NCBI GenBank assembly: GCA_002633005.1 | Contig: NMRA01000686.1 | Location: forward strand, 141,552 to 205,551 | Reading direction: 5' to 3' | DNA: 64,000 nt | Source of the DNA: Phoronis australis | Lineage: Eukaryota; Animalia; Phoronida | In this document: positions 4,401 through 46,615 of the stretch, piece after piece | Position numbering within the stretch: the first letter of the stretch is position 1 | Layout: every line of letters begins with the position of its first letter | Position numbers and translations under genes: made by a program | The notes under the pieces: generated by a model | What the model saw: only the letters and a program-made list of their open reading frames with translations | The model's database searches: none | What the model was told of the DNA's origin: nothing

Positions 4401-4573
4401 AGGTCAAACATTCAAACTTAGATCAACAAATTCAACATAAAACAAGTAAAGGACGTGGAACTGAACATGTCACAAGGATGGAGGAAAGACTTCTTTGAGA
4501 CAATTTGGATCCTCACCTTTTTTAATTCTTCCTCACCGAGAAGAATTCCTCCGGATTGTGTGCTCTCAGCCAT
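1467..4573 (-). CDS. 5' part (exons 1-2) of a tandem paralog of the ankyrin-FAM111-like gene; remainder is left of the window
   Basis: Exon 4573-4517 is MAESTQSGGILLGEEELKK|gtgagg. Exon 1556-1467 is VRTAVKHGNCTHLVKYLDCGWNVNQPLDTN|gtaagt. Flanking introns align to 34250-46190. Confidence 0.8.
1601..1700. repeat. Inverted repeat / small foldback element with ~40-bp arms
   Basis: acaggcatactcatcttctgatcgtccccaatacactacat ... atgtagtgtattgggacgatcagaagctgaggatgcctgt. Confidence 0.9.
3112..3252. other. Assembly gap (141 N)
   Basis: Run of n. Confidence 1.
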
Positions 4574-4739
4574 GTTGTAAGTCAGGTCTTGCTACTAGGC
4601 CTACACCGTCTTAAATCAGAGCCTAATGATAACACGGTACTTTCTGTATCTATAGGATTTACCACAAGTTTCGATGCGTCATCAGTTGCTGATAAATAGG
4701 TCGCCAACCCACACGATAGATGGCCGGTAAAGTGGTAGC

Positions 4740-9409: not shown

Positions 9410-9721
9410 CTACTTGGGGCGTCCTCCGGGGAAGATATGTTGACACAAGTTGGCGTCATGCTGATGAATAAAGTCATAGATGCACTCTACTCTGACTCCT
9501 TGCTCAACGGTATTCAGATGGAATTGACCTTGTGGCAACACTATATTATGTCCACTCGTGTGCATGACAGCCAAACACGCCTCCTGTTGGTCGTCAGCTA
9601 CAAACCCTGGGCTTCCTGAGCTGCCGGGTCCGAACCTTGAGCTAGATTGGTAAAGCACTCGACGTCTGTCAGCTAATGTGTTGTACGTTTCGTTGTTAGA
9701 TTGTGTGTAAAGTTGAAGAAG
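9410..9721 (-). CDS. Exon 12 (terminal), catalytic Ser (GSSGSPGF) and AVMHTSG
   Basis: Phase-0 acceptor ttgcag|CTT, stop ending at 9410. Same frame as track ORF 9410-9727. The acceptor is slightly uncertain because another AG lies 16 nt upstream. Confidence 0.85.
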   Translation of the reverse strand, partial: LLQLYTQSNNETYNTLADRRRVLYQSSSRFGPGSSGSPGFVADDQQEACLAVMHTSGHNIVLPQGQFHLNTVEQGVRVECIYDFIHQHDANLCQHIFPGGRPK

Positions 9722-12700
9722 CTGCAATTGTAATAAGCTGAATCAAAAAAACGGTGTCTTATACTAATGAATAGTTACTGCCACCCATCCATTGCCACGT
9801 TATGAACACACTAGCTCATGCACTGATATACAAGCTGTACCCGTCTCGTGTCAAACTTTTCTAAAACCTACTTACTGGTATGAAAACTGGTCTCAAATGG
9901 ATTCCTACTCAAATTTGAAGTGATTTTGGACTTATATGAGTTAATTATTTAATGTCACTTCCAAAGCGCAAATCACGTGAATTTGAGCTTACCCAATACA
10001 CAGCACTTATCGATACAACTGGACTTATACCTCACATAAAATGGGCAGTCCTGTCAAGTCATCGTGTTGTGAGCTTAGGGAATTAAATTGCAGGCACTTA
10101 AAACAAAAATTTGTCTAAAGTTTGTTTCACTGAAGAAAGACGTCGTAAGTTTGTATGTTTTTGTCTTAATTTTGACTAATTTACCGGATGTCGAAGTCCC
10201 GAAGTTGAGAAAAATCTTAGACTTAAGGGAGAAAGGAACTTGAGTCGTTTTCTTGGAAGGGGTCGTCTGGCTGGTTGTATGAAACAGTCTGAAATAGGGA
10301 CTCAACTAAGGTCCCTAAGTCTTTTTGCGTATTTGTGTCTCTATGGATAATACATGTATAACTAAAATCTGAGCCCAGAGTCCTTTGAAAATAAATAGGG
10401 ACTCGGCCCTTTACTTGGAGGTGTTGCTTGAAAAGATCCCCAATTATTTTTGATACTGACAATTCAGCGTAGAGTTTACTCTGGATTTGCAGCGAAAGTT
10501 GACTTAGTAATGAAACTTAAACAATTTAAGAAAAAGTAATAGGTATTTTCACAAGTCCAACATTACCCAGTAGATTTGGGGAGCATAGTTGAGTCCCCAT
10601 TTGGTACTGTTTCAAGCTACAGGGTGCTGGTCTCTAACAAGCTCAGTTCTTGGTGAGATCCTAACAGTGTGAGAGGTAATAACCGGATGAACGGGTCTAA
10701 GTCAGAACTTGATATTCACAGTTTATCAAAGAAACTTTATACAGGGTTTTGTTTTGTAAATGTGTTGCCCTCGTTTATAAGTGCACTGTGGGCTTTAATA
10801 CTTTATATTTCACAGATACTGTAGTTGTGTTAGACATCGGTAGTTTGCTGCACGACTTAAAAACAAGTGCAACACATTTTGTTTGACCAAATAATAGAGT
10901 GACGTAACGTGTACCTGTGCTCTATGCATGTCGGATAAGTGCTCAATTTTACATTGAGTATCCAAAACCTTCTCGTGGCCGTCAGGATGGCCCGCAAAGT
11001 GCAGGTATTGCTGTCCCACGATAACTTTAAAACTAGTCAGTGGTGTCGGCAGCGAATGATGGTCTAGCCTCTGACACTGATTGAAGGCTGCCGGAAGTGT
11101 AGCGTTGAAATCTAGATCCACGATAGCCACGTCGAGGTCATCGTCACAAGCTAAGACTGAGAGGATGGGCGCTGCTTGGACTGAGCTCATACATTGCATT
11201 AGTGCCTTGTTAAAGTGAAAGAGAACAGCGTTGCTTCCAACTGAAACAGAGAGACAAAATACATGTAAATGATAAAGTGATCTGTAGAAATCGGGAGCCA
11301 CACAGTGGCGCTACATGTGCATGTAATGGCCATCTCGGTGACAAAAGTAATTTTCTGAATATAGTAGCGCAAAATCGAATCCACCAGCTCCGCGGAGCAG
11401 CCTAACGCTCTACTGCAAGGCGAAATTCCGCACGTTTACTAGCTGTAAAAATAGATTATAGAGTATTTAAATGGTAAAGATACCCGCTGATTTCTGCCAA
11501 TGTCTTGCAGACAACAGCGAGAATTGGCAAATCGTAAGGTCAAAAACAAATCAAAGGATGTTGTTTTTTTATAGCTATGATCCAAATTAATAACTTCAAG
11601 GTATCAATCCAACCCAACAACAATCCTAAGGAGGCCGTCGTAGAACCGGCAATGAGGTGATTTACAAATCAAATCCAACTTGAATCGTTCAGTTAGTCCA
11701 TATTTTTGCAAAATATAAAAAGCTATGAGTGTAGGGATATTCAAACTAGACGACTGCAGTCTTGAAGTAATTTTTAAGTCCACTTCATCAGAGGTGATGT
11801 GGAGCCGGGAACTACATGGCACTGGTTGAAATGTTTGGTTTGAAGGGTCATCTGGAGGTGACGATCACTACAAAAATTATATATACTCGAACAGTCGATA
11901 CTCCGAAAGGCAGTTATATCATACCAATTCTGTGCGGTACAGGCCAAGTAGTCTTACCTTTACTGGTTTTGAGTATGATCTAATTTTAAAGTATAGAACT
12001 TGAAGGATAATAGAGAGATTAAACTGCCACACCCAACCGCACATGGACCCATGCTAGGATGTCACCAGGGAATGACGTAACAAGAGGAATTAACGCAGCG
12101 TTCAATTTCAAGCCGTGTTTTCGGTCACCATTTTCTAATTGAGGTCACGTGATGTTCTGATGCTGGCATGATACTGTTCTTTGGCCAAAATAGGGATGGT
12201 GGGTGGGATCGCACAGAACTCAGACATTATTTATTCAGATCGGCCAACGAGTGACCTCAGATCTTAGGAGCTTTCGTTGGAATGAGGAATCAAGATTAAA
12301 GAATCAAGAATTAAGAATCTTTATTTAACGTCGTTCAAAGAACATATTGATGTTAGCCGGTAGGGCTAATTCTACGACATTAACTTTAACAGAAATATGA
12401 AGAAAATAGGACTTAATTTAAAGATGGATAATAACACATAGATACAGGTGTGAATAAAAGTGAAGTTGCCATAATCGCTAAAGTCTAGTCTAGGAAATGA
12501 GGTAGTAATTCCTAAACTTTATTTTTTTGTGTTTAACGTTAGGATTATGCCTTTAAATTTCCAGTTAGCCTGGGATAGAACACTTAGCGAGTTATTGCTA
12601 GTAAACTTGTATTATAAAAATACATTTCGTCAGCTTTGGGGCCTCCTTGAAGTAACAGTAAGCATGTTGTAAACAGCGCCCGAGGCAGTTTAAGTTTTGT

Positions 12701-15700
12701 AATGGAAAGTTAGAAGTCAATGTTTGTAAACAAAGTTCGACATGCGTTGCGTTTTGTAAAACTACCGATAACTAACGCAGGAAGTTATTTTAATGACACA
12801 GTTTGTAAGAATGAGCGCCTTTTTACAAATAGACTTGTACTCAATGCATTTTGTTTCAAGGGTGATAATACATGTATATGTAAAACGCAACATATTTTTG
12901 CCAAAATTGACCCCGTGTAGGGTAAACACGGCAACGAAACTGGACGGTACTATGGGAACCCAACTATGAAGTGTGAGGCAAAATCACCAGAATGAAATTA
13001 TGTCCACTAGAAAACATTTTTTCCAATTCGGAAACTTGATTTGAAAACCTAGCCTGTTGAAGACCAATCATTTTCATGTTCAACTAAATGATTTTGTGAA
13101 GTGCCCACTTGGGAAACCCCGTTCCAGAAGAGAGAGTCTCCGACTAGATGACGTGGATGTGGTACGAGGTCGCAGTGCGTATTCAGAGTTCGGATAGGGG
13201 GCTAAAGAAAGTTAGAAGGGGCTGCATTTAATAACATAAATGTACTAAAAATGGTGCCATTTGGCGTGGTAACCCTCAGTCCGAATCACCAACCCTTTCC
13301 CGTTCAACTTGCTAAAAACTCAGTTTTGTCTTTCTTACAATTTATTGACTCTAGATCCGCCTCTGCAGCAAATACCGAGGCAAAGCAGACAGACTTTATA
13401 TTTACACAGCTGGTCACAACAACATGTTTCGGTGTTCACAGCACATATCATCGCGATAGATGTCGATGTTGACGTAATATAGGGTGACAATATGTGTCCA
13501 GTTCAACAACGTGGCTTCTGCTTGTCGCAAAGCTCAGCACTTCCAAGTCAAATAATTCACAAATCTATGTACATGTAGTAGGCTCCACCGAATTTTCCTT
13601 ACATGATTGAGGAAACAGTCAATCCTGCATTGACCAGGTCGTCATAATTATTTGTCACTTAGAAAAATGACATTGCTCCCAGAACGATACGCAAAATCAG
13701 ATAGTGAAAATAAGACAACGGGGGCATAAACTACGCAACGCCTTAAATTCTGAAGAGTTTATGAAAAACAACGTTTTCAAGAGGTCTGTGTTGATTCTCC
13801 GACACATACATCTGTACATGTACAGTTAACATGTACATGGACATGTAGCAGCAGTATCATCAAGGTAGGAATTGTGAATGACAATGGTACTGGATACCTG
13901 TATGCCACTGCATATCATGCGTGCACCCAGGGGGGGGACTCGGGAGTTCGAACGAGCCCCTCCCCCAATTTGGCGAAGTGGGCAAAAAGGTCCGCCTCAG
14001 AAAAACAAAAACTCCGAAAAAAGAGGCAAAAGTCCATTGAAAACACGCAGACGCTCAATTTACAATTTCCAAGGTAGTACCCTCATTTTTTGTTTAGTCC
14101 TACCGATATTTTGTCGGCAAAAGGTCCGCACCGACAGAAATTCGAGCCATCCCACATTGAAGGCTGGGTGCGTGCATGCATACACAGAAAAGTGGACTTC
14201 AAACCGAGATTTCAAGTGGCGAGCTGATTTAACCGGCATCAGCTTGTACTTACGCGGGACACTGAGCTCTTTTACAACGTGGCAATTTGTCATAACGTAG
14301 GTTGGACCAACGCGGAACCCAGATCCCAATCCATATCCATCCGACCTTGCAAGTAGAACGACAGACGGGAGCGCACGTGCTAAAGACTCGTGTAAGTGCG
14401 CCAACATCACCTTCTTATTAACATCATGGAACAGTGTGGTAGAGGCTGTGGGCGGTGGAGGAGGCTGTATGAGTGGAAAGTAATCTGAAACACATACACC
14501 TAATGCATGTTACAATAGTGTACTCGACAAGGAACAAAAGTGACACTTTCAAGATTTCCATTGAAACAGGCAATTGGCTATCAACTTAAATTCCTCCTTG
14601 GAATTAATCATTTACCCGACAGCCTTGTATTCACACCCAATATGTCCAATATGCCGTCGTTTCTCCTCTTTACTTTTAGGTTGACGTCTGCTTCTCCGTC
14701 GGGGATAAATTTGCCTTCAGATTTGGTAAATTCTTCGAGTACTGCACCAAACTGCTCCTCAACCGGAGGAGCACACGCTCCTAAAGTTTGGTCGGATGCA
14801 CGTTCAGTAGCTCCTCTGGCCCCACGCAATCGAACTTCAATTGTATGCCCGTGCTTTTTTTCCAGTTTCGTTATATCTCTTTGAAGTTCCATTTGCTTCT
14901 GAAAATGACATTGGAATATCTTTTAATCCCAGTGGCTGTTCAGGATAACTTTCTAACACACTAAAAATCAACAACGAGCCATCTTGCGTCATGAAATTTT
15001 CCTTCGTAAATTTAAAGACGGGATTTTGAAGAACTGAGAGTTTGTTATCGCTTTAGATCCGGCTCAACATGCTGGTTTATATCGACGTGTCACTTTAAGC
15101 GCCGAACGTGGTCTCTTCAAACAGCATATATTCACAATTATGCAGAACGAGGTTCACATCAAAAGTTCGCCTCTTGTGCTAAGTATGCTCAAGTGGACCA
15201 TTTGACTGCAGGTGGCTCGAGATCGTATTACAGCTAGTGTGGCCTGATAATTACACCATAGTAACAAGTATATGTATATGGACCATTGTTATTTGTTGAG
15301 TACCTTAAGGATAGTTTTCGTTTTCTTGACCTCATCTTTGTCTGCATAACCGTATATACCGCAAACGTCCAGGGCTGTTTTATTTTCCTGTAAATATAGA
15401 AATGCACGAATCTATGATGGACTATTGCGAACACCAAGAGGCGAAAGGGAAAGAAAACTGGTTGTTGAATCGTATTTAACGAGACACAATAAGAACAAAA
15501 ACGACAATAGTATGTTGAACATATAGGATCTGACGAACGAAGTTTATGTTTCGAAATAATTTGAAGGTGTGCTTCACAATGACGTGGAGATAAATTTGCA
15601 ATCTTAAGTTCATCACTTGTTTACGCAGAGTCTAAGAACTTCCCCATCACTGAAATAACATGACCACAATCCGCTTTGCAAAACATTTTCTGAACTCATC

Positions 15701-18700
15701 CTTTTAGACGATCAGCCAGTTTTCTTTTGTTTTACACTTAAGTTGTATGCTTATCTGAGACCAGGATCATTATGCTCATGGGCATTAGACTGAATGTGCG
15801 CAATTTCACGTGGTTAAGAATCCGCCAGCGCGCTAAAGAAGGCGTCTAATTTTATCGGGTGTCGACAATTGAAAGGCTCGAAATCAGATAACCATGCAGG
15901 ACAAAGTTGAAATCATCTCAGACAAGTCATTGTTCTTATTTACGTGTAGGTTTCAGGAAGTTTCTTTAAGTGGTTACGAAATATAATGAGAATTGGACTT
16001 GTAAGATGGATTGGATATTTGTCACCTACAGTAGCTAGTTAAGGTGACACCTTAAGAAGCCAGCATGGGAACAGAGTTTAGACAACATCAAAAGACAAAC
16101 GAGTTCCCACGTGACCTGAGTTCCCGCCACTAGGAGTTTATACCGACACATCGGAGGAGACGCGAGGTCTCCCAGGTACTAGTCATATTGTAAATATCCA
16201 GTCTAGAACATAAGTCTGTTTCTGAGTTGCTCAAGCTCTGCATTGTATTAATAGGTAAGAAGAGAGATATCCTATTATAGATTAATCCATTTTAAAACAT
16301 CAGTCCACGGAATTACACAACCACGACACTATGTAGTCGACACGTGTATTTGAGGTGTACTATTAACTCCAAGGAACATTCACAACAAAATATGAATAAA
16401 GACATGGCTGTATAATTTCATTTGATCTTTAAACACGAAATTATTAGATCGTACATGTAACCTGCGTTGATACCGTGCGTACTTGAACGGTCGATTGCCG
16501 ACAATAACTAAAGAATACGTTACATCAAATCTTAACGAACTGTTGTTGATTTTAACACATGCGATCATCTACATGTATGGATCGTTTTATTTAACACAGG
16601 TAATTTCTAATAACTTACTGAAAATTAGACCATTTTTGTCAAAACATAGCTTTCTACGCATGGCTGATGTAACCAAAGACACTGAGAGCTTGCTCGTTTT
16701 GAAATAATCTGGTGTAGACGGCAGGCGCATACCAAAAATGTAAGTGCCACAAAAACTTTTAAGTTTTGGAAGATGAGCCTATGAAAGTTGAAATGGTATA
16801 CCGTAATTTTTAATTCAAAACACATCCGAGAAAACCATTTTGCCTGGAACTTAGAACCTATTGAATTTACGGGCTCTTCTTTTTCTGAGTTGTTGTAAGT
16901 TTGTGGGAATTTGAAGTGTACATGTACAATATTTGAGATCTACTTCGGACAAAATACTGTAAACCAATTGACCAGTCTGGTACAGGACACCAACTCTTGT
17001 CAATAAAAATATGAGCACTTCCAACATGTATCGTTGTTAACTGAGCACTCCTTGCACGGGGGAGAAAGGCAAGCAAACATTGATATTGAAACTTCAAGAC
17101 AAATGTCAAAATGTGTCTTCGGAACATCATACATTGTACTGTACGCAGGCTACCTCTGAAGTGGATTCATACAAAAAAGGTCTGATGATATTTTATGCCC
17201 TCTTATAGTAAACGCCGTTTGCGTTGGTTTTAAAATGTTCCATTTTTGTACGAGGAGCTACCTATTTTACAGTAGCATAAGGAATACCCTGATATCATAA
17301 CGTTTAGTGACCTAAGTCCAACGACAATCTTGTGAAGGAAGGTGGGTTTAATGCCGCTCTATTATCGGGGTTGGATCAAACTGGCGTGATTACTTCAGCA
17401 GGACATGAATCAGAAATGTTTAATTCCTGTGCTAGTGTGATCCACTTAAAGGTGGCTGAGACATAAGCAGGGTGTAATTCTTGTTCCACCCTACCAAAAA
17501 TGAAACTTATAAAACAAATTACTCTATGACACAAGCGATGTCCTCAACCTAATCAGGTCTTTCACTCAAATAAAATTGGTCTCAAAGTATTTCTTACAAC
17601 AGTAGGATTCTATTTCCGTTACCAAAAAGAACGCAATGACCAAAAATCAACTCAAAGAAATGACCCAGTGTTCATTGAGGTTTGCAATCTCTAAAATTGC
17701 ATTATCTGAACTGGCGCTTGTACGCATGGCGTTTGACTTAGAGAGTTCCAACCATGACCGTAAATCTCAAAAGCAATTTTATTCGTACATCTTAAGAGAT
17801 TTAATGCCTTTAGTATGCCTGTTGTAAACAAACAAGCCAAAAGTTTTATTTTTTTTTCTGTAACCGGGGTTGTACGTAACTCGTGGGAAGACCGACTCCG
17901 CCGTTGTCGTGTAGGCCAGTGCGATTTTGAGGAGTTGCGAGGAAAGTCCGCGGAGAGCCGCCCTTTTCAGAAAAGAAATGTTGGAGGCCGTACTAACAGC
18001 AACTTGACTGAGAAAGTCTCAAATTTCCGAAACACGTGAAACTTGCATAGAAATGGCATCAGTTTGAGCGGCCGCCGGTACGAGAGTGTAGAACGTCGTT
18101 AGGCACATGTTTTGACCACTCACAAAAACGACGTTACGATAAACTACTTGCCGCCTTTTAAGTGTATTTGCAATTTTATAGATAACGAACACACTGTTTC
18201 CATTCTGGGGCGAGTGAGGCCAGGCCCTCGATCCCAGGGGTCCAGACCGTTTGCTACGGCACGTAGGCTTATGCATTGTGTATAACGTGCTTATTAGATC
18301 ATTGCCGTGACCCAGGTTTACTGTGCCCTTTGTCAGTAATTTTAAGGATCTATTTCGCGAATATTGACCACCCCTTGCCTCAGTTGGTTGTGGCTTGCAT
18401 GTGTCTGCAGTATTTCTCGTGGAAGTTGGTGGAGTTCATTAAGGCCTGAAAATCGGGAAATCGACTTCACAAGTTCATTGTATGATTCTTCAAGTACTTG
18501 AGTGTGAGGTCCATAGCCTGTCTGTATAACCGTTGTCCAGTTCTCAATCAAAATCGTCCTCGTATTCTGATCTGATTTGTTCCGCCATTGAAATTGATTG
18601 TCAAGTGACCAATAGTCTTCCAACCATTACACCATTTGGCGGGAAACTTGGAAATAACTAATTTTTCTTCACAGTTATACCATTCGCGACTTTTTAGATA

Positions 18701-21700
18701 AAAAGTGCTTAATTTGTTAGATTTCGACATCCGTTTCATATTAGCTAAATAAAAACTCAAAAACTAAAAAATGCACGGTGAGATGTCTACATGTAGGTTG
18801 ATCACTGACTGAAATACACTCCCATGGAGGTAAAGAATATATACGAGACTGATTTTTACGAGAATATTGTGTCACTTGAGTTTCGTTTTGCCTAGCTAAA
18901 AAGAGCGAAACATAGCTCAAAGTTTCAAATTCGAATCTTATTAGAGCCTAATTCTTTAAATTAGATTTTCTGGGCACAGGGTGCTTTACTCAAAAAGTTG
19001 TGAATGGCAAAAATTCTTTGAATTTCGTTTGGACAAAATTTATTGATCTATAAAAATCTTCGTAACCAGCGGGCGCAACCCGTGTTCACGAATGTCCATG
19101 TCCGACTTGTTACATAAGAGAAATCAAAAATTATCATGGGTTGAAAAACATTGTCGTGCCTCTACATTTCAGCCAAGACTCCCTGCACTCTATCCACGGA
19201 CCATCAGACACAAACTCGCGGTATAACTCGTCAGACGAGCGCACCTAATCCTCACATACCCGGTAACTGTATCTCATGCAATATGACAAAACGCAATTTT
19301 TGCTGATCTAGGACAGGGTTTAGAGGATCGTAACTGGAAATTAGTGGAATAACAAAGGAACCATTTCCATCTACATGCACAAACCATGTGCGTTTTTTCT
19401 AAACCTGCACTTATTAACGGATCACTTGTAACTTATATAAACCGACCCGGTAGCTTCTCGCTAACTGAGTCAAGTTAGAACGCTAAATTATATTTTTTTG
19501 GTAAGTAAGTGATGAGCAAGTAAGAAACATTTTTTTCCTCTCTGAATAAAACCGTGTTGAAACCGTGTATACCAGGTAGACATTGTTCTTGAAATCATGC
19601 AGGCGTGTTCCTATTGTTCAATCTCGTAATTACTTACCAAGTTGCGCTGGGTAAAAAGATACCTTTCGTCATGTTATATTTCTGTTGAAGACAATCTTAT
19701 TAAATCTAAAGAGTACCTTGAATATGTGCCTTAAAGTACGTTGCTTTGTTAAAAAAATAGGCTAAAAGTCCATGAGCACAATACATTGCAAAATGTAGTT
19801 AAAGTTGTTATGTTCCAAAAGAAGCTGGACTGTGAAAACAAGCAATGTATCACTAATGGTTACTAAGAGACAACGTTCTTTCCAAGACCTGTTGAAAGGT
19901 TGTCAACATTTGCCGAGAATTGAAAAACGGGACAGCCAGATTTGAAGAACGAGGCACAATAATAAAAAGCCATAGACTTGTGTATACACCAAACCAAGCG
20001 GTGAAATAATCCCTGCAACAAACAAAACTGAATCCGAACGGAAGACCCCCGACGGTTTTTTGCTTTTAGGGAATGGGAAGTTGGAGGGTTCGGCAGAAAA
20101 TTTGGAACTTTTCATTTATCTTTGATAAAAGGAAAAATAGGACAAGACACGTGGTGGTAAGTTAAACAGGCCTTGCGTCAAAAACATTTTGAAAGCTTGC
20201 GAGACTCCGCCAAGAGCAGGTCACTTAGCAGGTACACTGGGTAAGGAAAGGTAGGCTATTACATTTTACACGCAAACATTCCATTGCTTGCATTTAATTC
20301 ATGGACATAGGTAAATGCCGTAAACACACCATAACTGCTACCCGGAAATCTAGATTGCGTTCCAATCGCAGGACTTGAATACAATGTATGTTTATTCCAA
20401 TTTCTCCAGTTAAATTTGGTGGGCCAATTGCTCACTGAACAAACAGAACATTCCGTTGAGCTGTTGATTGCAAGAAACAATGCATGTTTTCTGGGAAAAC
20501 GAAAATTTCACACTATGTCGATCTCAAGTTGACCATTTTTGCATTACCAGTATCGTGGTTTTTAACTTGGGTATTGAAGACTCAGTTCCTCATCCTACCG
20601 ATATAGTGTTTACAAGTACAACAAACCTCACCGCCACACGTACACAATCAAAACACGCACACATCGAAATCTTTAGCCTAAACAACGAGGCAAAAAATGG
20701 CATCAAACTGGCATTTTATTGCAAAAATTACCAATGACATGTAAGCGCGTTTCGGCCAATTTCAATTTTTATAGACGGCAGACACATAAAATCAATGCAA
20801 TATTTTAGGCGTAAAGATATGCCGACATAAGTTTGAAGTCTTTCAGATTGAAGTTGGCGAATTTTGGTAATTGTATTTACTATATATGTACGGGCTTGAA
20901 CGATATATAAAACAAGAGGCCAGAATGGCTCCATTCACAAGTGTATGGTGTAATAGTGATGACGTCTGGTTTCAGTTTTGCCAATTTACCATTAAAAACG
21001 GTGCGTGGTGCACACGGAACAGTATCAATATAACTGGCATGAACCAAAGCGTTTTACGATTACGAGGCCTAAAGTAAGAATAAATAAGCTGTAATAAAGC
21101 AAAATAAATTTGCACCAAAGTGATTTTAAGAGCAAGAAGTGTGCCATATTGATGAAATGGTTATGTTGAATGAATGAATCCTAAAACTCAAGGTATTATG
21201 TGACTACTGTTCACAAAAATTCCATTAAAAGAAGACGTTATTACCACAAAATCAAAAATAGGATATCTTTGAACCAAGTGAAGGACTCGAAAGTCGAAAA
21301 CGTGAGACTGTACGTTTCCTACACCTATATTCACCTTACAATCATGAACAAATCAGTCCGTTAACACATTTTCAAGAATCTAAACCCAGACCTCATATTT
21401 GCAGTGGAAAGGAAAAAAGATCATCGCTCTTTACAAGTATTGCACAGTTCTTCTTTTTCTAGGCTTTTGCACATTCAGGCTTCTGGGACTGTGAAAAAGG
21501 GGGTTGCCCTTTCGAATGGCTGGGCTTTGCCCAATTCACACAATACATACATCTAGGCATAAAAGAATTAATACTAAGCCACTGGGCTACGCCACTGTGG
21601 GAAATTGATTACTAAATATTCTTTCTGTTAGAGTAAACATGATTAAAACCTTCTTAAACGAGGTGAGAAAATTATATGTGCCCGTTGTCGACCATTTATG

Positions 21701-24700
21701 GAGAGGTTGGTATGTCTTTAGTTTGTGCCAAAATATTACAGACAAGAGGCTTTGATTTACTGAGTGTTCTAGTGAAGGTACATGCAGTGAAGAAGTGGCT
21801 CTTTGTTTGACTCCAGGCAAGAAGCAGGTCATTTTCGATGATATATTTGTTATAAATGAATAATTCCACGAACTCAATGTTCGTTTAAAACACATTTAAT
21901 GCAGTCTCAACTAAACAACGAGTAGAACACTCTTGCGATACCTTGTTGACGGTATTGACGTCGCATCCGCTTTCCCTGCACAGTAGTTTCACTACCTCTG
22001 TACGTCCACGTTCAGATGCGTTGTGCAGCGGTGTGTCACCCGACTACAGTAAGTGAACAAAAATAGATAATGTTGATCAGCATTATACAGTAGTGATGTG
22101 GGTGGGTGAACAGGTCGCCAACTTAAAGACTTTTTAAGTTCAAAACTTCACCATCACTTGTCATACTTATGAAGTGAGTGACTCAAAATGACGAGAGTAA
22201 AAACTGACCTTTAAACTCAGACATAATCTGCCCCGGAATTTTTAAAGGTCAGTCTGATTAGATGTTATCCGATTGAAAAGAGTACTATTCTAAAATATGA
22301 CATCAGGATTTTATATATAACAACAGAGTGACATTCATGCATATAGTGAGTGCTGTGGAAATACAAGAACCAAGTCACCGTGCAAGTCTCAGTGAACTGA
22401 TTGTACAGAGCGACGGTTTTTTAATTATTTAAAGTCGCGTGCACGTCACGTCACGTGCGGTGGAATGCAAGGAAAAATGTCAAAGTTTGCAACTAAATCA
22501 TAATGGTGATTTATTAATGAAATCACCGAAAGGTTCAATCTAGTCGCGCGTTGTGTGTTCAACTAAACAACCTGTGTGTCATTACTTACCAACATATCAC
22601 GTACATCTACACTGGCCTTGTGGGCCAACATCACCTTCACTGTTTCTGTATGACCACCCTCTGCTGCCATGTGCAGCGGTGTCACGCCCATCTATGTAAT
22701 ACATAATGGAGATGTGTGAATGGACGATCAACGTTTAGAGCTAATTAACATACACAGGGGAAAGTGAACTTATAAGGTGACATAATGAAACATTACTGAC
22801 CCCTCTAAGACGCTACAATACTTGTAATGATTTCAAGAACCAAGCGTTACAGATTTTAAAACGTTACAGAACATGTTACAACTCTACGCAGCTTTGGTTC
22901 TTCACCAATCAAAAGCAGACGACATATAACTTGTCATTGTTTTAGGACAATAAATTGTGAAAAATATCAACAAAATTTGTTCCTAAACAGTTTTAATCAT
23001 CGTGTGTGTAAACAACTAGTTCAACTAAACAACCTGTGTGTCATTACTTACCACATCACGTACATCTACACTGGCCTTGTTGGCCAACATCGCCTTCACT
23101 ACGTCTGTATGACCACACTCTGCTGCCCTGTGCAGCGGTGTCCGGCCCTCCTATGTAATAAATAATGGAGATGTGTGAATGGACGATCAACGTTTAGAGC
23201 TAATTAACATACACGGGGGAAAGTGAACTTGTAAGGTGACACAAATGAAACATAAGTGACCCCTCTAAGACGCTACAATACTTGTAATGATTTTAAGAAT
23301 CAAGTGTTAAAGATTTTAAAACGTTACAGAACATGTTACAACTCTACGCAGCTTTGGTTCTTCACCAATCAAAAGCAGATGACATTTAATATGATATTGT
23401 TTTAAGGACATTAAATTGTAGAAATATCAACAAAATTTGTTCCTAAACAGTTTTAGCCATCTTTATGTGAAACAACTAGTTCAACTAAACAACCTGTGTG
23501 TCATTACTTACCACATAATCACGTACATCTACACTGGCCTTGTTGGCCAACAATACCTTCACTGTGTCTGTATGACCCCACAGTGCTGCCATGTGCAGCG
23601 GTGTCCCGCCCAACTATGTAATATATAATGGAGATGTGTGAATGGAAGATCAACGTTTAGAGCTAATTAACATACAAGGGGGAAAGTGAACTTGTAAGAT
23701 GACATAAATGAAACATTACTGACCCCTCTAAGACGCTACAATACTTGTAATGATTTCAAGAAGCAAGTGTTGCAGATTTTAAAACGTTGCTGTAACAACA
23801 GAACATGTTGTAGACGTCGACTGCAAGAAATTACAGAGTTCCTCCATAACTTGACAGCGATCCCGCCATGTTGTATTTCTTCACTGGTTTAATTGCTTCG
23901 TGTTTAATATAAAGTTGTAATGTTGAATGGACGATTGTCATTAAGAATAGAAAAGTGGACGTTATTAAAGTCGCTAAATGTGTTGGTGACATGATTCAAA
24001 CTTCAGTTTCTTAAGATGATTGTGCCCCTGCAAGTTGAAAAATACATGTCAAAATATTGAGAAACAAAACGTGCATTTACAAACAAAATATTTAGTTGAA
24101 CTTCAAAGTCTACAGCTTTTGTAATAAAGATAACATTGTCTTAATTCTAATGTCGTCTCAAGTAGTTTCTATTACCTCGTCTCGCACGTCTACATCGGCC
24201 CCACCCTGCACCAGCACCCTCACCAACTCCGTCCTGCCCTCCTCCGTTGCTATGTGAAGTGCTGTCTGGCCCTGCAGAAACAATGAACAATTTATAGCAA
24301 ACTTCACAATCATTAACTTCACTGTGAATCTTAATTACTCATCATGCAAACGTTCAAATAACTCATTTCCACACAAAATTACCAAATCTACTCTATGTTT
24401 ACCTGTTAATTAACAGTCGTGGTTGGAATATATCATCGTGTCAGTGTCAATAGTAATTCTTTCAGTGTAGACATGAGATATTCCTTAAAAGTATGCAACA
24501 TTTATGAAATTACGCACACCTGGTTGTAGCTAACACGAGCTATCACTGTTATTGGAGAAAACCTGTCCTTGATATTCGCACTAATAATCACCTCTAAGAG
24601 CACAATGTCATGAGAATAAAATGTTCAATCCCATTTTTGTTTTTAGGGGCATAACCAGCTAAACAGGGGGAAAAGCAACTTGCTGGAAAATCAATTCCTT

Positions 24701-27700
24701 GATGAAAAAAGGAGGCAATAGACGACAATGCGCGGCACATGTACTTTATCGGCTATACGCGGAAGTTGCGAATATATTGGTAAAATCGTCGTACTCATGC
24801 GGTTTGCTTTTATTAGTGGGTCTACCTGAAACCAACACTTACTGGACGCATCGATTCAAAAGCATGCTTAAACTTATGAATTCTAGACTCTAACAATAGG
24901 GATATGAGACTATTTTCTTTGGCAAGAAATTATTTCTAAATTTGCGTAAGGAAGAAATGGAATAGTGGGACGAGAGAACACAATGATACAGCTTTACAAG
25001 GTCAATGTGACATCAGGATGGGATAATACTGGGACTGAAATATTAAATAGTTTCAGGAAAAAACGGTTGGAGTGTATTGTTGATTAGGAACCACAGGCAC
25101 GGGGAAACATGTTCAAGAGGTCAACACGACAACAGCATCGAACAAAATGCCAAATGGCAAAATCACTTCGCCAAAATGTGCTGGCAAAGACTAAACCCTT
25201 GTATAAATTTTGAACACGTTGAAACACATGTTACCAAAACCTTTTTCCGATGTGTAAAATCAATTACGCGAATGTTACCATTCCAACGCACATCCAAACA
25301 GTTATAAAATTATTCTCTTGTGCAGACTTCAAACGACGACGTCCAGACAGGCGAAGAGTTGCCTTCAAAATGCAGCACTTAGTCAGACAGTTTTCACGTG
25401 TACACGCGATAAATTGATACAACAGCCTCTTGCTGGGTAGGAACAGGAGAAGAATTGCTTTTAAAATGTAGCACTTTGCCTGCCAGTTTTCACGTGTATA
25501 CGCGATGAAATGATACACTTGCCTTATCTTGATTATATTTAAAGGAACATTTCCTGATGATAGGGAAGTGATTAAAGATACAATGCAGCATGACCAATCT
25601 CAAGAAAAATGATCGCAGTTTGAACTTTTGATAGTCGTGTTGATCCCATTTTCAACACAGACGTTCTGAAAGATGCGTTAGCGCAATTATACCTCGTTAC
25701 TGACAGTTTTAGACAATCAGCTTGTTCAACACTTCGTTTAAACAGATGGTGCGATAGGTTTAAGTGATATCAGAAATATGCGGTGCCAAGTAATTTCATT
25801 TGTAACGGTATGATCTCGACAGCTTTTACTGATGGCAAGCAACAAACGTGTACGGAAAATTAAACGTCAGCCTCAATTTGATGTTCTGTCACTAGACTAA
25901 ACTAGCCGACTGATCTTGAACCCCACTTCGACACAAACAGATAAAAGAATTTACAATTTGTACACATTAGGACGAGTAATATAAAAGGGAAATGAAAAAT
26001 ACCTTACTGAATAATAGCATTGGCCCCTTAAAGAATAGAAATATTATGCTGTACCTTAAGCCATTTATCGTTTAAAAACTAAATAAATAAAATCTTTAAA
26101 ACGTCATTGGTTTTTAAAAAATCACCGCCGTGGTAACAATGAGTTGCGCTTACGTCGGTCCATCTACATGTAATTATAGAAGAAAATTTGGAAATCAATC
26201 AGTAGACATTTATTTGTACGTGAACACTGTACTTCACGTGACTAAAATGTTCAAAATGAGATGGGTGGACTTTTGTGTGAAAAATGGCCCCTGATGAGAA
26301 TGAAGCACTCATTGTGTCCATTCTAATAGGTTTGAGAAGCTTATCTTGGGTTGGCAATATAAGAGTGACGTTTACAGTAGTGCATTGATTTTATTTATTT
26401 ATTTATTTATTATTGTGATATTTACATGTAAAATGAGGGTGGCCTCTTCAGTGATAGCACTGCTTTCCAAGAGGGCCCTCAACAAGAAAAACAGTAATAT
26501 AATACAATGAAGTAATAAAACAACAATGAAATATACGTAACAAAGATACAATTAAAACAGGTAGAGAATTAAGACAATAACTAAATGACAAATAATGGTA
26601 AAAATTAACTAAGACAGATGAAATATATTAGAGATGATTCTAGACAGTGAGAGTATTTACGACAAGGAAAAAATGACATGATTAAGACAGGCAGGGTATA
26701 AAAGGTCAAGTAAATTACAGCCACTTTTAATATTTACTTTAAAGGTAGTAATTGAATTGGCCCGTTTAATTTCTGGGCTAAAAGAATTCCACATTACAGC
26801 AGCTGCATAGATAAAAGACCTCTTGCCCGTCTCGGGTTTAATTTTTTTAGAAGAAACATTGCCAGAGATATACTGAAGCCAAGCCATTGATACATCTGTA
26901 CATACAACAGGCAGAGAGATATTTATTTCTTTGATTTACTTTCATAAATCCCAGCTTGGAATACAAGTCGTCAACCCTGGTGTCCCCAATTCTAGTACCC
27001 AGGATAGCCCTGGCGGCTCTATCTTGGATTACTTGGACTTTGTTTACAAGTGTGTCACTAGTGTGCCCCCAAACCGGTAAACAATAATCAATATGAGGCT
27101 GAATAATAGAATGGTAAAGTGTCTTAAGAGTACTGACATTAAGAAATTTGTCTAGACGTTTAAGTACACCGATTTTCTTTGATAATTTCTTTGTGATATG
27201 ATCTATGTGCATATTAAATTTAAGATTGGGATCTAAAGTAAGGCCCAAGTACTTAAAGTTGTCAACATTCTCGATGGGAGAACCGTTGATAGAAAGGGAT
27301 AGTTTTAAAGAACAAGATTACGTCGCCATTGGTACCAATTCCCAAACACGACTGATTCCTGTAACTTACAGTTCACTCGTAGTGGTTAATTGGATAACCA
27401 ACTCTCATCGATTGTACCTCTGTGAACATCTAAAATATGTCTTAGGTAAGACCGGCCGCATGGCCATGACTAAAATCTTCCTAATTTACTAACAAGGTTA
27501 CGTCGTTCCTGTAAACTGACGTCTAATAGAGACGTTTTGAAAAGCGACGTGAACGTGAACTATCACGCAATTTCTGTATAATACCGAGTCATACATGCCA
27601 CTGTTGGATGTGGCACAATCCCGGTAGTGTCCGAGTATTTTACGCGAATACGGAGAGATTCGCGTCGTTTTCATCGCGAAACCTGGTCACATTTTTTAAT

Positions 27701-36700: not shown

Positions 36701-39700
36701 TTTGCATGATAGAAGTGTGCTGTGACCACAAGTTGTAGTGTACGTACCCTTTTATACAGATGTGATGCATTAGGCCATAAAACTTTATTCGGTGGTTCTT
36801 GTGCAAATATATTTTAGATTGCAAACCTGGAATGATGGTACTTTATAATAACCTAGCTTTTATAGTTATATGACAACCTTAAGTTTTCACCAAAAGTGGC
36901 CACCGAATAAGGACCTTGATTGTGATTTGCCCGTTACCGTTTTTTGTAATAAGGTCTACAAACCCCAAGATTCGAGACCCCTGCATCCCTACATTTTAGG
37001 CTGGGCGCTCTCGTGGCAATATTCTGGTTATTCCTGTGCCTTGGCCCCTCCTAACTCAAAATCCTGGATCTGCCCCTGACAACAGTGTCTCGGAATCACA
37101 AAATCACAACATGGTCATCTACTAAACTCCAAGCACTTGCGGCTAACAGCACTTCGGGTAAAATAGCTTAGATTCTGGTCTGTATTTCTCGAAATATGAA
37201 GTCCTACACCGTATTCTAGTAGTGCACCTTCACTCAAAAGTCATGTAATATAACCTAAATTGACGCTTTGACACCACCAACGGTCCAGTAACTGAAGTCG
37301 AAAGGGGCTGTGACTGTGACCAAAAATGGAACACTTGGCTTTGGAAATGCATATAAGTCAAAAGAAGCGGCATTAATCCCTTTCATCATGGCAAAACAGT
37401 TTTCTTTGTGGACATGTCGATTACTAATACGAAATTGACCTCGGTCAAAAAAGGTAATTTCATAGTATTTTAAAAAATGTATGCAGTTCCAATTTCATTC
37501 TGAAGAAATGACTGCGCCTCACTATTATTAATCATCCACTAAGTCCATTCCCCTAAGCAAAATCCGAAGTAATTGTACAACAGCTACGTGGATGCTTTGC
37601 AAAAGTGCACACCTGCTTGACAAAGACAACTCCTTCATTCACTTAACTTTACCTAAATGTTTGACCGAAATTCTCGTGAGCTCTGTTAGCAAAGATAAAA
37701 ATGGTTAACAGTTACAGTGCAGATATCAAATAGATTCGACCTATAAGGCAACACTTGTACAGAAACTTTCTTTTAAAGGTGCACTTCAAGCCCGTGATGA
37801 CGAAAATAGTGTTCATGAGTGAATACTTACTAAAAGATTATTCAGTTGCTGGTTTACGTCCCATCCGCTCTTTAAATACTTCTCCAGAGTAGTACAATCA
37901 CCATTCCACGCGGCTCTTTCAACCTGAAAATATTAATAAGTAAATATGGATTATACATGACACAGCGTATGTGCACTATAATTATGGAGTCAACTTTACA
38001 AGCCGGGAGCTCTTTAGATGATATGAAAATTCCAAATACATGATTTTCTATTTAACATTTTGCTTCTACTAGCTAAACAGTACGTTTACAAAGAGAGATG
38101 TCACAAAAGTATACCTAATTTTCTCAAGTTCGATAAAAAAACTTATGAATACTATAATGCTGAAAAATTAAATGCACATAAAAACCTTGTAGATGACAGA
38201 TTCTCTGCAAAATGGGAAAAATTTATTGTTCATGTTAACTTCATGTAGAAGATACTTACTTTAAACGAGATATGAGAATGGTCTTCCTGAGGTGTGCATG
38301 CGTGTACTTATTTGTTTTGTTTTGTTTGTTTTTGTAATTGTTTGTAAACGATAATAAATACATAAAAACATGGAAAAAAATTCCAAAAGGGTCGGGTTGC
38401 CGCTGGGTTTTGATAATTGAAACAACGTGAACACGATCAATGTATTTGGTAGACTTCTTCCTCCAGAGAATCCTTCGTGATTGGACCATTTTATTGTCAT
38501 TTTCATTTCAATGTATTATGTTTAATTTCAGTTTCCCCACAAGATGCCAACTGGGGTTGGTATCCTGCCCTCTCAAACAATGTTTGGATAGGTACATGTA
38601 GTTGGCCCTTAGGTATATCTAGAGGACATTTATCCATTTAGGCCCAGTCTCGAGTTGGAATACATTGACTCATGCATTGTCCAGGTGCATCTCCTAGTGT
38701 CTTTGTCCGTTGAGGTTACGGTTCCTTTAGGTATTCAAGGTTTTGGTGGCATCATCTTGAGAATGTGCGGAAACGAGGATGTTAAGTGGGTGGGAAGGAC
38801 GAAACAGATGCGTTTCAGAAATCATCTTTTATCGATGCCTACGGTACGCATTTCACACTAGCCAAAACATTAGATTGGTCTGGAATATGGCTGTGTGCAG
38901 TCACCGACTAGAATCTTGATTCAGGCAACATGACAATTTTTATGTGTTTGCACTGCATTATTCTAGAATCTGAACGTTAATCATAAAAAGGACTGTGATG
39001 CGCGAGAATTAAATCAGTGCAAGATAAGCGCAAATAATTGCAATTGTGCCAATGTTATATTTACCCCCCCCCCTCTTTCTCACGCTCACCTGTTCCGTGT
39101 TCTCATAACCCCTATTTAGGGAACTTTGGCGCACACAATCACTTTTATATTTGGTTGTTTGTACTTCATTCTAGCCCGGATTAACCCTATCCAATATTAC
39201 ATGTTTCTTTAGTATTATTTTTTTGTATTGCTACATATCATTTCCATGATCAACTATCGTTATTGAATAATAGCATTTACCAAACTTGCCTAGTATTCTT
39301 GTACAGCGAACCAACTGGAGTTGATATAACGTGCTACTATGAACGACATTAGTGATGCACCGTATTTGAATCATGTCCAAATTTCTCGGTCAAACTAACA
39401 ATCGCTGGATACACGACGAATAAATTCGTCAGTGGCCTTGTGTTCGTGTAGTGAATTGCCTCTTATTCGCACACAGAACTTGTCGGGACAAAGAATATGA
39501 ACTTGACACTATAAAAATGCTCAGGGTGGAAAACCTGATATTGTACACGTAGTTTATTGTTGGATTTGAAAAGAACTTTTAGTAGTGTATATATTGTTCA
39601 TTGACGTGGGCTCAATACGCGAACTTGCTTATGGTTCGCGCCGGCATCATTTTAATACCGCACATCACAGCTAAAAGGCATCTGCTGCATCACTTTTACA

Positions 39701-45700: not shown

Positions 45701-46065
45701 TTTTGTGACTGCACAAGGCCATTGCAAGGGTAAATGGGGGACTAATTTAAAACTGTTGTTTTTTAATGTGACCCGAGTTTGGATCTCAAACTGTACATGC
45801 TGTAATATCTAATCAAAATATCTTTACAAATTCATAAAACTTAGGTTGTGATGTTATAATTATAATGTCAGCTAGACCGGTTGTGAATATAGCGCCTAGG
45901 CGGATTAAACAATCAAATTTCGATAAACATATTCAGCATAAAACAAATAAAAGACGAGGACCCAAACATGTTTCAAGGACGACGAAATGAGGGAGTTTAG
46001 ACTCTCACCTCTAGCAGTTCTTCCCTACTGAGACGAACGCCGCCTGATTTTTTGCTCTCAGCCAT
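9410..46065 (-). CDS. Spliced 12-exon gene: ankyrin-repeat + FAM111-like trypsin-fold serine protease, 628 aa
   Basis: Exons 46065-46009, 37923-37831, 24271-24176, 23613-23512, 23150-23052, 22691-22590, 22043-21942, 15387-15304, 14898-14616, 14484-14254, 11240-10915, 9721-9410. All introns are GT-AG with matching phases. The total is 1887 nt, one uninterrupted frame from ATG to stop. Contains ankyrin TPLH/TALH motifs and protease motifs GSGFRVG..MTNCHVV, LDVAIV, GHPDG.K..D, GSSGSP and MHTSG. Confidence 0.88.
10915..11240 (-). CDS. Exon 11, protease core with catalytic Asp (DDLDVAIV) and FAM111-type GHPDGHEKVLD
   Basis: ctgtttcag|TT acceptor and CAG|gtacac donor, phase 1-0. Same frame as track ORF 10810-11301. 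Confidence 0.9.
13916..14178. mobile_element. MITE in intron 10, 15-bp TIRs, imperfect 5-bp TSD
   Basis: TIRs catgcgtgcacccag / ctgggtgcgtgcatg. Flanks catat / catac. Confidence 0.75.
14254..14484 (-). CDS. Exon 10, poly-Pro linker and start of protease domain with catalytic His (MTNCHVV)
   Basis: tttcag|AT acceptor and CCG C|gtaagt donor, phase 1-1. Contains PSVVLL..GLGSGFRVGPTYVMTNCHVV. Confidence 0.9.
14616..14898 (-). CDS. Exon 9, linker (KQMELQRDITKLEKKHG...GVNTRLS)
   Basis: ttttcag|AAG acceptor and TCG G|gtaaat donor, phase 0-1. Same frame as track ORF 14608-14892. Confidence 0.8.
15304..15387 (-). CDS. Exon 8, C-cap ankyrin repeat: ENKTALDVCGIYGYADKDEVKKTKTILK
   Basis: tttacag|GAA acceptor and AAG|gtactc donor. 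TALD capping-repeat motif, phase 0-0. Confidence 0.8.
21942..22043 (-). CDS. Exon 7, ankyrin repeat: SGDTPLHNASERGRTEVVKLLCRESGCDVNTVNK
   Basis: ctgtag|TCG acceptor and AAG|gtatcg donor. 102 nt, phase 0-0. Confidence 0.92.
22590..22691 (-). CDS. Exon 6, ankyrin repeat: MGVTPLHMAAEGGHTETVKVMLAHKASVDVRDML
   Basis: tag|ATG acceptor and TTG|gtaagt donor. 102 nt, phase 0-0. Confidence 0.92.
23052..23150 (-). CDS. Exon 5, ankyrin repeat: EGRTPLHRAAECGHTDVVKAMLANKASVDVRDV
   Basis: tag|GAG acceptor and GTG|gtaagt donor. 99 nt, phase 0-0. Confidence 0.92.
23512..23613 (-). CDS. Exon 4, ankyrin repeat: LGGTPLHMAALWGHTDTVKVLLANKASVDVRDYV
   Basis: tag|TTG acceptor and GTG|gtaagt donor. 102 nt, phase 0-0. 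Confidence 0.92.
24176..24271 (-). CDS. Exon 3, ankyrin repeat: GQTALHIATEEGRTELVRVLVQGGADVDVRDE
   Basis: ttctgcag|GGC acceptor and GAG|gtaata donor. Canonical ankyrin consensus, phase 0-0. Confidence 0.92.
25350..25516. repeat. Local degenerate duplication (~107-bp period)
   Basis: gaag..ttgc.tt.aaaatg.agcactt..c.g.cagttttcacgtgta.acgcgat.aa.tgataca occurs twice. Confidence 0.75.
26388..27310 (-). mobile_element. 5'-truncated L2/CR1-group LINE (RT C-terminus, 3' UTR, microsatellite tail), frameshifted
   Basis: FKYLGLTLDPNLKFNMHIDHITKKLSKKIGVLKRL..TLKTLYHSIIQPHIDYCLPVWG, then a frameshift to KRSFIYAAAVMWNSF. (AATA)n tail at ~26388-26414. Confidence 0.9.
31356..31488. mobile_element. Short MITE of the (C/T)AG(T/G)GGCGGAT family
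   Basis: taggggcggatcca ... aaatctgccacta termini. Interior resembles the reverse complement of 60922-61083. Confidence 0.65.
34819..37078. mobile_element. hAT5-like MITE (CAG..CTG ends, ~5-bp TSD) interrupted by a nested 2-kb TIR element
   Basis: Termini cagttgcggattt and aatcctggatctgcccctg. Flanks aaaac / acaac. The paralog has the empty site (cacgcctaataacagagtctc, ~566-586). Confidence 0.8.
34902..36933 (+). mobile_element. Non-autonomous ~2-kb TIR DNA transposon, copy 1
   Basis: TIRs cggctaaatcacaatcaaggtccatattc / gaataaggaccttgattgtgatttgcccg. About 8 internal GTAGTGTACGTACCCC-like motifs. No ORF of note. Confidence 0.88.
37831..37923 (-). CDS. Exon 2, N-cap ankyrin repeat: VERAAWNGDCTTLEKYLKSGWDVNQQLNNLL
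   Basis: tttcag|GTT acceptor and TTA|gtaagt donor, phase 0-0. Has AAxxG..L..G.DVN ankyrin pattern. Joins to GQTALH of the next exon. Homologous exon at 1556-1467. Confidence 0.85.
38030..38370 (+). mobile_element. 3' end fragment of an L1/Tx1-like LINE ORF2
   Basis: ILLLAKQYVYKERC..P.F..F...E...A......RFSAKWEKF resembles the L1/Tx1 ORF2 C-terminus. It is followed by a T-rich 3' UTR and aataaa. Confidence 0.6.
40053..41922 (-). mobile_element. Non-autonomous ~2-kb TIR DNA transposon, copy 2 (inverted relative to copy 1), TSD TAT
   Basis: Termini cgggcaaatcacagtcaagatccatatt and aatatggaccttgactgtcatttagccg. Flanks tat / tat. Has an internal ~340-bp duplication and an internal deletion. Confidence 0.88.
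46009..46065 (-). CDS. Exon 1 (start): MAESKKSGGVRLSREELLE
   Basis: ATG at 46065, donor GAG|gtgaga, phase 0. The same 57-nt exon with ATG and donor is conserved in the paralog at 4573-4517. Confidence 0.8.
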
Positions 46066-46615
46066 ATCCAAGTCTGGTCTTGTCGGTAGCTGTCGTTAAT
46101 CTGCGCCGAAAGATAACACAGTAGTTTCTGTTTGAATGGGTTTTTCCAAGTTTCGATGCGTCACATGCCAACCAACACAATAGATGTAGGCGTTCACGAG
46201 TATAAGGTCGCTAAACAAATTCACAAACTAGTACTTGTGAATCTGATTTTAATAGCCAAATTTGGTCGAGTAACAATCAAAGATTCCTCCATCGAACTCC
46301 TGGTTTTTCTATGAAAATTTTCGGATTAAACTTAGAACTATATTTTTGCGATATTTTATTGCGCGCGTAGATTATGACCAAGTTACTGCCAGATTTTGGA
46401 ACTCTTTCGTTTAGTGAAATAAGAATTTGGAGCATTGTCTGCCAACCAAAACAAATTATATTTCACGAGCCACGGCACTATTGTGTATTTCCGTGGGATG
46501 CTAGTGAATACTGTAGTAAGTGCATCGGAATATTAGAAGCATGTGATTGTGACACTGGCCGATAAGACATTTTATTGTTATTTTCCCGTGTTTTTAACTC
46601 CATAATATCCGCCTA

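Follow-up and report, generated by a model that had tools for sequence, protein, structure and literature searches.

Can an animal gene acquire new binding specificities by copying a single small exon? The question is raised by a locus of Phoronis australis in which near-identical exons, each encoding one ankyrin repeat, stand in tandem with their introns, on the same strand as exons for a serine protease. Throughout, the window denotes the whole stretch of DNA that was analysed (64,000 nucleotides of contig NMRA01000686.1), and positions count from its first letter. We regard it as fairly probable that the exons are recent copies of a one-repeat cassette differing mainly at the binding face, that they are likely spliced to a FAM111A-like protease, and that the product is likely a fast-evolving intracellular defence sensor.

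Structure of the gene and its cassette array

The array is made of exon-plus-intron units of 462 and 460 bases and a partial unit of 331 bases (Table 1); Tandem Repeats Finder places it at 22557-23788, with a period of 463 bases and 91% matches. The original prediction had described three units of about 461 bp with near-identical introns; the repeat array is real, but it amounts to 2.7 units, and a comparison of its two full introns shows mismatches at 22 of 358 aligned letters (6.1%) as well as a few one-base indels. Each of the exons ANK2, ANK3 and ANK4 holds one ankyrin repeat between an AG acceptor and a GT donor, in phase 0, and each has a Pfam Ank match (E 2.5e-10 to 3e-9); framework and introns of the three cassettes are about 94% identical. 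Re-alignment returned exactly the codon differences first listed (codons 1, 3, 8, 11, 12, 16, 17, 20, 21, 24, 33 and 34; 12 of 34), with GTA/GTG at codon 20 again the sole plain silent change among the three exons. Weak ankyrin-HMM matches at 39655-39714 and 19043-19123 were rejected as exons, having no open exon-length frame.

Table 1. Features of the predicted ankyrin-protease gene and its tandem paralogue in the window
Feature	Position	Strand	Properties	Evidence
Tandem array, exon+intron units	22557..23809	.	2.7 copies, period ~461, ~90% identity	Tandem Repeats Finder
Cassette exon ANK2	23512..23613	-	34 codons	Codon alignment, Pfam Ank; expressed, spliced to like exons
Cassette exon ANK3	23052..23150	-	33 codons	Codon alignment, Pfam Ank
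Cassette exon ANK4	22590..22691	-	34 codons	Codon alignment, Pfam Ank
First coding exon (predicted)	46009..46065	-	19 codons, ATG, phase 0	Kept in paralogue at 4517-4573, pS 0.40 > pN 0.22
N-cap-like ankyrin exon (predicted)	37831..37923	-	31 codons, AG/GT, phase 0	Paralogue copy near 1467-1556, pS 0.51 > pN 0.29
ANK1 exon	24176..24271	-	Older, diverged repeat	Pfam Ank E 1.4e-9; RNA depth in its bin
ANK5 exon	21942..22043	-	Older repeat	Pfam Ank E 2e-9; tandemly doubled in RNA, 2 of 3 runs
Linker exon	14616..14898	-	94 residues	Low-confidence fold, pLDDT 47; spliced to next exon
Protease exon 1	14254..14484	-	FAM111 alpha1 helix-region match, catalytic His (TNCHVV)	FAM111-like HMM E 7e-7
Protease exon 2	10915..11240	-	Catalytic Asp (DLDVA)	FAM111-like HMM E 1.3e-5
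Protease exon 3	9410..9721	-	Catalytic Ser (GSSGSPG), stop	FAM111-like HMM E 9e-14
First coding exon of tandem paralogue	4517..4573	-		Homology blocks 3690-4681 with 45136-46163, 1070-1566 with 37479-37933

The gene model comprises 11 exons on the minus strand, running from 46065 to 9410, with an open frame of 600 aa and GT/AG at every intron. The predicted protein begins with the products of a short first exon and of an N-cap-like exon, continues with five ankyrin repeats, each encoded by one phase-0 exon, and after the linker ends in a FAM111A-like serine protease. Five of the six candidate ankyrin exons score 37-40 bits against the PF00023 cut-off of 21.1, while neither the N-cap exon nor the linker exon has a Pfam match. 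The 600-aa model contains no NACHT or NB-ARC domain, placing it outside the NLR/STAND class, and reading it by eye showed neither a signal peptide nor a membrane segment.

The tandem paralogue, on the minus strand from 4573 to 1, shares with the main gene, at 65-75% identity, exon 1, the exon for the N-cap and long blocks of intron; it leaves the window at the left end, and its ankyrin array and C-terminus lie beyond. Judging from pS above pN (Table 1), the two shared exons are under purifying selection. An intron of the paralogue holds a near-perfect 63-base inverted repeat with a 2-base loop (986-1113); the corresponding intron in the main gene lacks it.

Splicing was read from RNA reads of three runs (X6, X7 and X8), whose coverage of the exons has a single orientation, in keeping with transcription from the minus strand. 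The joint 14484-14616 (CT..AC), between linker and protease, occurs in all three runs (51, 39 and 12 reads), and joints 11238-14254 and 9723-10920 are listed for X8. Neither an ANK5-to-linker nor any other ankyrin-to-protease junction is found among the joints listed, beside which 168 more were recorded. That observation fits an alternative, in our judgement very improbable, in which the ankyrin exons sit on a different transcript from the protease and the three copies are a mosaic that assembly produced from a longer or multi-locus repeat. Its first half is opposed by the 7-kb ANK5-to-linker intron, most of which is tiled by long DNA contigs (15147-17958, 17933-18607 and 18642-21955, with 0-1 other letters), and where RNA depth is low outside one high-copy repeat and the exon phases fit. 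Strand, phase, contiguous contigs over most of the intron and the fact that no other expressed exon is seen in it thus argue that the ankyrin exons likely splice onto the FAM111-type protease.

Several other elements lie in the window. Three copies of a ~2-kb element (34901-36936 on the minus strand, 40050-41895 and 52603-54603) are about 80% identical and contain internal tandem units of 345-350 bases; two of them sit in introns of the ankyrin-protease gene, and the element is likely a non-autonomous transposon. A fragment at 26660-27317 (minus strand), which has no Pfam match, we take to resemble the 3' end of an L2/CR1-type LINE reverse transcriptase. Duplicated blocks of 86-87% identity lie about 15 kb apart (46841-48927 and 61798-63466), and a Pfam search of their longest open reading frames found no protein family. 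Sixteen other long open reading frames in the window gave no meaningful Pfam match.

The protease

The protease named in the original prediction is real, and both HMM and structure-profile comparison place it as FAM111A-like. The three protease exons match consecutive parts of an HMM built from 14 FAM111-like proteins, keep His, Asp and Ser in register, and so carry the intact catalytic triad of a Trypsin-2 fold domain that marks FAM111-like proteases. Protease exon 1 matches Pfam Trypsin_2 at E 0.0017, under the Pfam cut-off, as all single exons stay; searched directly against the PDB, single protease exons matched nothing significantly, 8s9k included. Among relatives with a name, lancelet FAM111A-like proteins stand closest (35-44% identity in protease exon 3, the best exon), and the relatives' profile matches the human FAM111A structure PDB 8s9k at E 1e-30. 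By sequence alignment only, the stretch preceding the first strand corresponds to that part of the profile which matches FAM111A alpha1.

A word-based search with the Ser exon gave no relative at E<=0.001 among 36 candidates, which is weak evidence. An HMMER search of representatives returned three matches, one of them a lancelet Trypsin_2 protein; a HYR protein and a Giardia VSP were dropped as repeat-driven false matches. Ankyrin repeats occur in none of the 17 protease relatives found, and no ankyrin-FAM111 fusion was present among 140 proteins compared. Searched in the other direction, the cassette retrieved 226 generic ankyrin proteins, and among the 120 listed none was close or fused to a FAM111 domain.

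Divergence among the cassette exons

The original prediction proposed pairwise dN/dS among the three exons, and by the Nei-Gojobori method the outcome is mixed: dN exceeds dS in every pair (0.164, 0.180 and 0.179 against 0.042, 0.065 and 0), but the excess is significant in one of the three (Fisher tests of N against S, p 0.16, 0.31 and 0.034). Taken alone, classical pairwise N/S statistics on three exons are weak. With the proposed intron baseline, N against intron gives p 0.015, 0.009 and 0.007 in pairs that share sequences and so are not independent; dS among the cassettes (0-0.065) equals the intron rate. When 21 changes were placed at random on the exon with the transition share of the intron, a mean of 6.1 were silent, and at most one was silent in 0.7% of 20,000 runs (at most two in 3.2%).

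Variable sites were located by alignment to DARPin sequences, not on a structural model. In DARPin libraries positions 2, 3, 5, 13, 14 and 33 are randomised (PMC8248824), and by alignment to DARPin chains these correspond to exon codons 33/34, 1, 3, 11, 12 and 31. The signal by position is stronger: of the 20 variable columns, 12 lie in these codons, which make up 21 of 102 letters (p 1e-5); once codons 33-34, affected by an indel, are set aside, the share is 8 of 16 columns in 15 of 96 letters (p 3e-4). To this set we added codon 8 (position 10) after seeing the data; it appears to be the target-contacting L86Q of DARPin D5, going by the printed construct sequence. Over the enlarged binding-face set the three pairs differ at 7/21, 10/24 and 7/21 letters (33-42%), and over the remaining exon letters at 5/78, 4/78 and 5/78 (5-6%), against 6% in the intron, so that the framework diverges like intron and the binding face five to seven times faster.

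The predicted likeness to DARPins accordingly holds in its main feature, the concentration of variation at DARPin-type positions, and falls short in detail. Five of the 12 variable codons (16, 17, 20, 21 and 24) lie outside the DARPin set, show conservative changes and vary only at the intron rate, and codon 31 (DARPin position 33) is constant in the three copies; the resemblance is therefore close, not exact. A mutational hotspot was thought unlikely, as variable codons alternate with constant ones.

Variation in reads from other individuals

The RNA runs carry the same species label, and their 151-base reads span at most two cassettes; a further run, X5, was left out (3 contigs on the exon, depth about 2). 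On one cassette 456 and 627 RNA reads and 149 DNA contigs (on 169 bases) could be placed. Among the 40 pooled variants listed of 58 rows, 34 are non-synonymous, 4 synonymous and 2 stop-if-alone, the last two both in codons with several changes; the silent share compares with 25% expected (p 0.015). The pooled table mixes alleles, paralogues and a second cassette subfamily, and its 18 unlisted rows could hold more silent changes. Twenty-one of the 40 fall in the 7 DARPin codons (p 8e-6), 27 in the 8 codons obtained by adding codon 8, and third-position variants occur at only 2 of 19 four-fold codons, again in the 40 listed of 58 rows. Position 10 is the most variable in the cassette pool, and position 33 is nearly constant.

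Could relaxed constraint after recent duplication account for this, with folding holding the framework, the surface drifting and conversion from older repeats supplying variation in the absence of positive selection? The numbers are small, the dS of the cassettes equals the intron rate, the older repeats ANK1 and ANK5 share some of the variant residues, and the protease exons vary mostly non-synonymously as well: the 16 variants listed, of more than 1600 rows in all, comprise 11 N and 5 S, which does not differ significantly from the cassette (p 0.10), and the whole gene may thus be loosely constrained. Drift, however, cannot exceed the neutral rate, which the binding-face codons do (33-42% against 6% in introns), and conversion from the older repeats, at pS 0.41-0.58 to the cassette, should carry silent changes, of which 17 of 19 four-fold codons have none in the listed rows. 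We hold relaxed constraint to be unlikely. The claim of diversifying selection at the binding face is upheld both by the five- to sevenfold excess over the intron rate and by the same pattern in other individuals' reads, and counting and simulation tests, rather than a codon-model likelihood, point to positive selection at ligand-face positions. As a separate observation, amino-acid changes in 11 of the 16 listed variants of the protease exons (9410-14484) suggest that the protease may itself evolve fast.

The same diversifying selection could be driven by a ligand from the same species, the gene being a self/non-self sensor or one of gamete or cell incompatibility, in the manner of the fungal het NLRs, and the protease would be the death effector. 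The fungal NLR ANK, TPR and WD repeats that bear this signature include allorecognition genes (PMC4986451), and residue frequencies differ between the RNA samples (the third letter of codon 16 stands at 26% in one and 75% in another). Speaking against such a role are the lack of a NOD domain in the model, a nearest characterised protease relative that is antiviral, and the model's lack of an apparent signal peptide or membrane segment; we think it improbable, and prefer the reading of a defence sensor directed at foreign proteins.

In RNA reads the cassettes are spliced head-to-tail in frame, and all 10 cassette-to-cassette joints with listed linking letters have periods of 93, 99 or 102 bases. 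An ANK5-type exon is likewise joined to another ANK5-type exon (22041 to 21945, in frame, period 102) by 41 reads in X6, 30 in X7 and 0 in X8.

Three further features of the reads may be recorded. In X6, 31 reads (23523 and 23612) show a 31-codon repeat period with a shortened beta-hairpin, beside the 33- and 34-codon forms. At 23557, 64 and 283 RNA reads that agree with the cassette's first 19 codons continue in register as C-L-V-E-H-N-A-T-V-D (hand translation); they may represent either a second cassette subfamily or a chimera with a common binding half. Finally, the intron upstream of the cassette acceptor (23614-23900) has sense-strand RNA depth of about 100-145 in X8 and 32-57 in X6, against 7-17 in the donor-side intron, and may reflect a retained intron, an intronic start or another transcript type.

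Cassette copy number

The DNA run X1 agrees almost letter for letter with the window in its single-copy parts and may be the source of the window. Most single-copy pieces have depth 40-54 in it (two have 24-30) and the protease-exon bins 82-115, while the cassette reaches 1620-1940 in its variable part and 1669 at the donor flank. Expressed as summed contig depth, which is not copy number as such, the cassette thus stands at about 30-40 times and the protease exons at about twice the single-copy level. Two contigs share a depth of 1296 at one site, so that at least one of them exceeds about 13 single copies; a summed depth of 17,000-21,000 at 23614-23643 was rejected as copy number, short overlapping contigs being counted many times there. 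We infer dozens of cassettes per genome, more than there are protease exons at 85% likeness.

Given this depth, the array as assembled, with three copies, may be a short or a collapsed one. Either the true arrays extend beyond what was assembled, or homogenisation of cassettes takes place across paralogues that have diverged or across other genes. The contrast in depth between cassette and protease exons, together with one N gap and single Ns in the window, is what the assembly-mosaic half of the alternative raised above draws upon; the variation, on the other hand, stands in raw RNA reads of other samples and was therefore not made by the assembler. Turnover of repeats is supported indirectly by the high cassette depth, the in-frame cassette-to-cassette splicing and the tandem ANK5-type exon in 2 of 3 RNA runs, with the depth and ANK5 reads not assignable to this locus as against its paralogues. 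One DNA contig of depth 358 (22470-23005) joins the donor-side intron of the cassette to the ANK5-side intron, which suggests several loci or haplotypes with another array end.

Proposed mechanism and its significance

Under the defence-sensor reading, unequal crossing-over and gene conversion would hold the framework constant throughout a pool that likely comprises dozens of cassettes and would change their number, while selection would preserve differences at the contact residues of beta-turn and inner helix. Gain, loss or exchange of a frame-neutral cassette would then change the binding groove and leave the frame intact. The putative groove would bind a foreign intracellular protein, viral or parasitic, and either bring the protease to its target or cluster it; clustering would activate the enzyme if dimerisation is needed as in human FAM111A, which dimerises via its alpha1 helix (PMC10920703). 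FAM111A is a host restriction factor, the human protein limiting SV40 and orthopoxvirus host-range mutants (PMC9798293).

A bolder version is conceivable, though we advance it only tentatively and doubt it more than we credit it: dozens of interchangeable ankyrin cassettes would make up a library spread over the genome, move between several genes and perhaps be combined by exon skipping, and would retarget a FAM111-type antiviral protease, forming a natural 'DARPin-protease' repertoire that differs between individuals and recognises and cuts the proteins of intracellular invaders.

If the proposal is true, an invertebrate obtains new specificities for intracellular binding through the copying of frame-neutral ankyrin exons, with selection acting on a DARPin-type surface, and it links these specificities to the protease family which in mammals restricts SV40 and poxvirus mutants. 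An animal ankyrin case would be added to a strategy described in fungi and brown algae, an antiviral origin of FAM111 proteases would gain support, and protein engineers would have a natural sample of the ankyrin positions worth varying, here also position 10 and hairpin length.

Comparison with known systems

Fungal NLR repeats and brown-algal LRR exons already exemplify the mechanism; we found no report in the open-access literature of ankyrin exon cassettes on a FAM111-like protease, an architecture that supplements could list.

In brown algae, candidate receptors of the LRR-ROCO and NB-ARC-TPR types carry one repeat per exon, and their exons are duplicated and shuffled within and between loci (PMC3341825; PMC11378527). 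One repeat per exon, exon copying and diversifying selection on the repeats are thus common to those receptors and to this gene (Zambounis 2012, PMC3341825; Teng 2024, PMC11378527). Repeat number varies at the algal loci, to which the tandem ANK5 exon in 2 of 3 RNA runs, in reads not assignable to a locus, may be the counterpart here. The algal proteins use LRR or TPR repeats with a GTPase or NB-ARC switch, whereas the present gene would join ankyrin repeats to a serine protease, in an animal; it also differs in that an HMM scan of the window's introns found no inverted or dead cassettes.

NLRs of Podospora have repeats of high internal identity, concerted evolution, repeat-number polymorphism and positive selection on ANK inner helices and beta-hairpins (Dyrka 2014, PMC4986451), and only 0.8% of the ANK, TPR and WD repeats of metazoans show high internal conservation (PMC4986451). 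High internal identity and a selection signal on ankyrin contact positions are found both there and here; unlike the fungal proteins, this gene has no NACHT or NB-ARC domain, its N-terminal repeats are copied together with their introns, and its putative effector is a FAM111-like protease.

With the FAM111A and FAM111B proteases (Pfam PF13365; PDB 8s9k) and their lancelet relatives the gene shares the His-Asp-Ser triad in FAM111-type motifs, GHP..K.D.C, the alpha1-region segment and a C-terminal VEQG. Vertebrate FAM111A/B have two UBL domains and, in mammals, a PIP box, in whose place stand the N-terminal ankyrin array and the 94-residue linker; invertebrate FAM111-like proteins are also described as having no UBLs (PMC9798293).

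DARPins, finally, resemble the array in their constant framework, in variation at positions 2, 3, 5, 13 and 14, and in a capping-like N-terminal repeat. The array differs from them in being natural, in having position 10 as its most variable and position 33 nearly constant, and in a hairpin whose length varies, giving 31, 33 or 34 codons per repeat.
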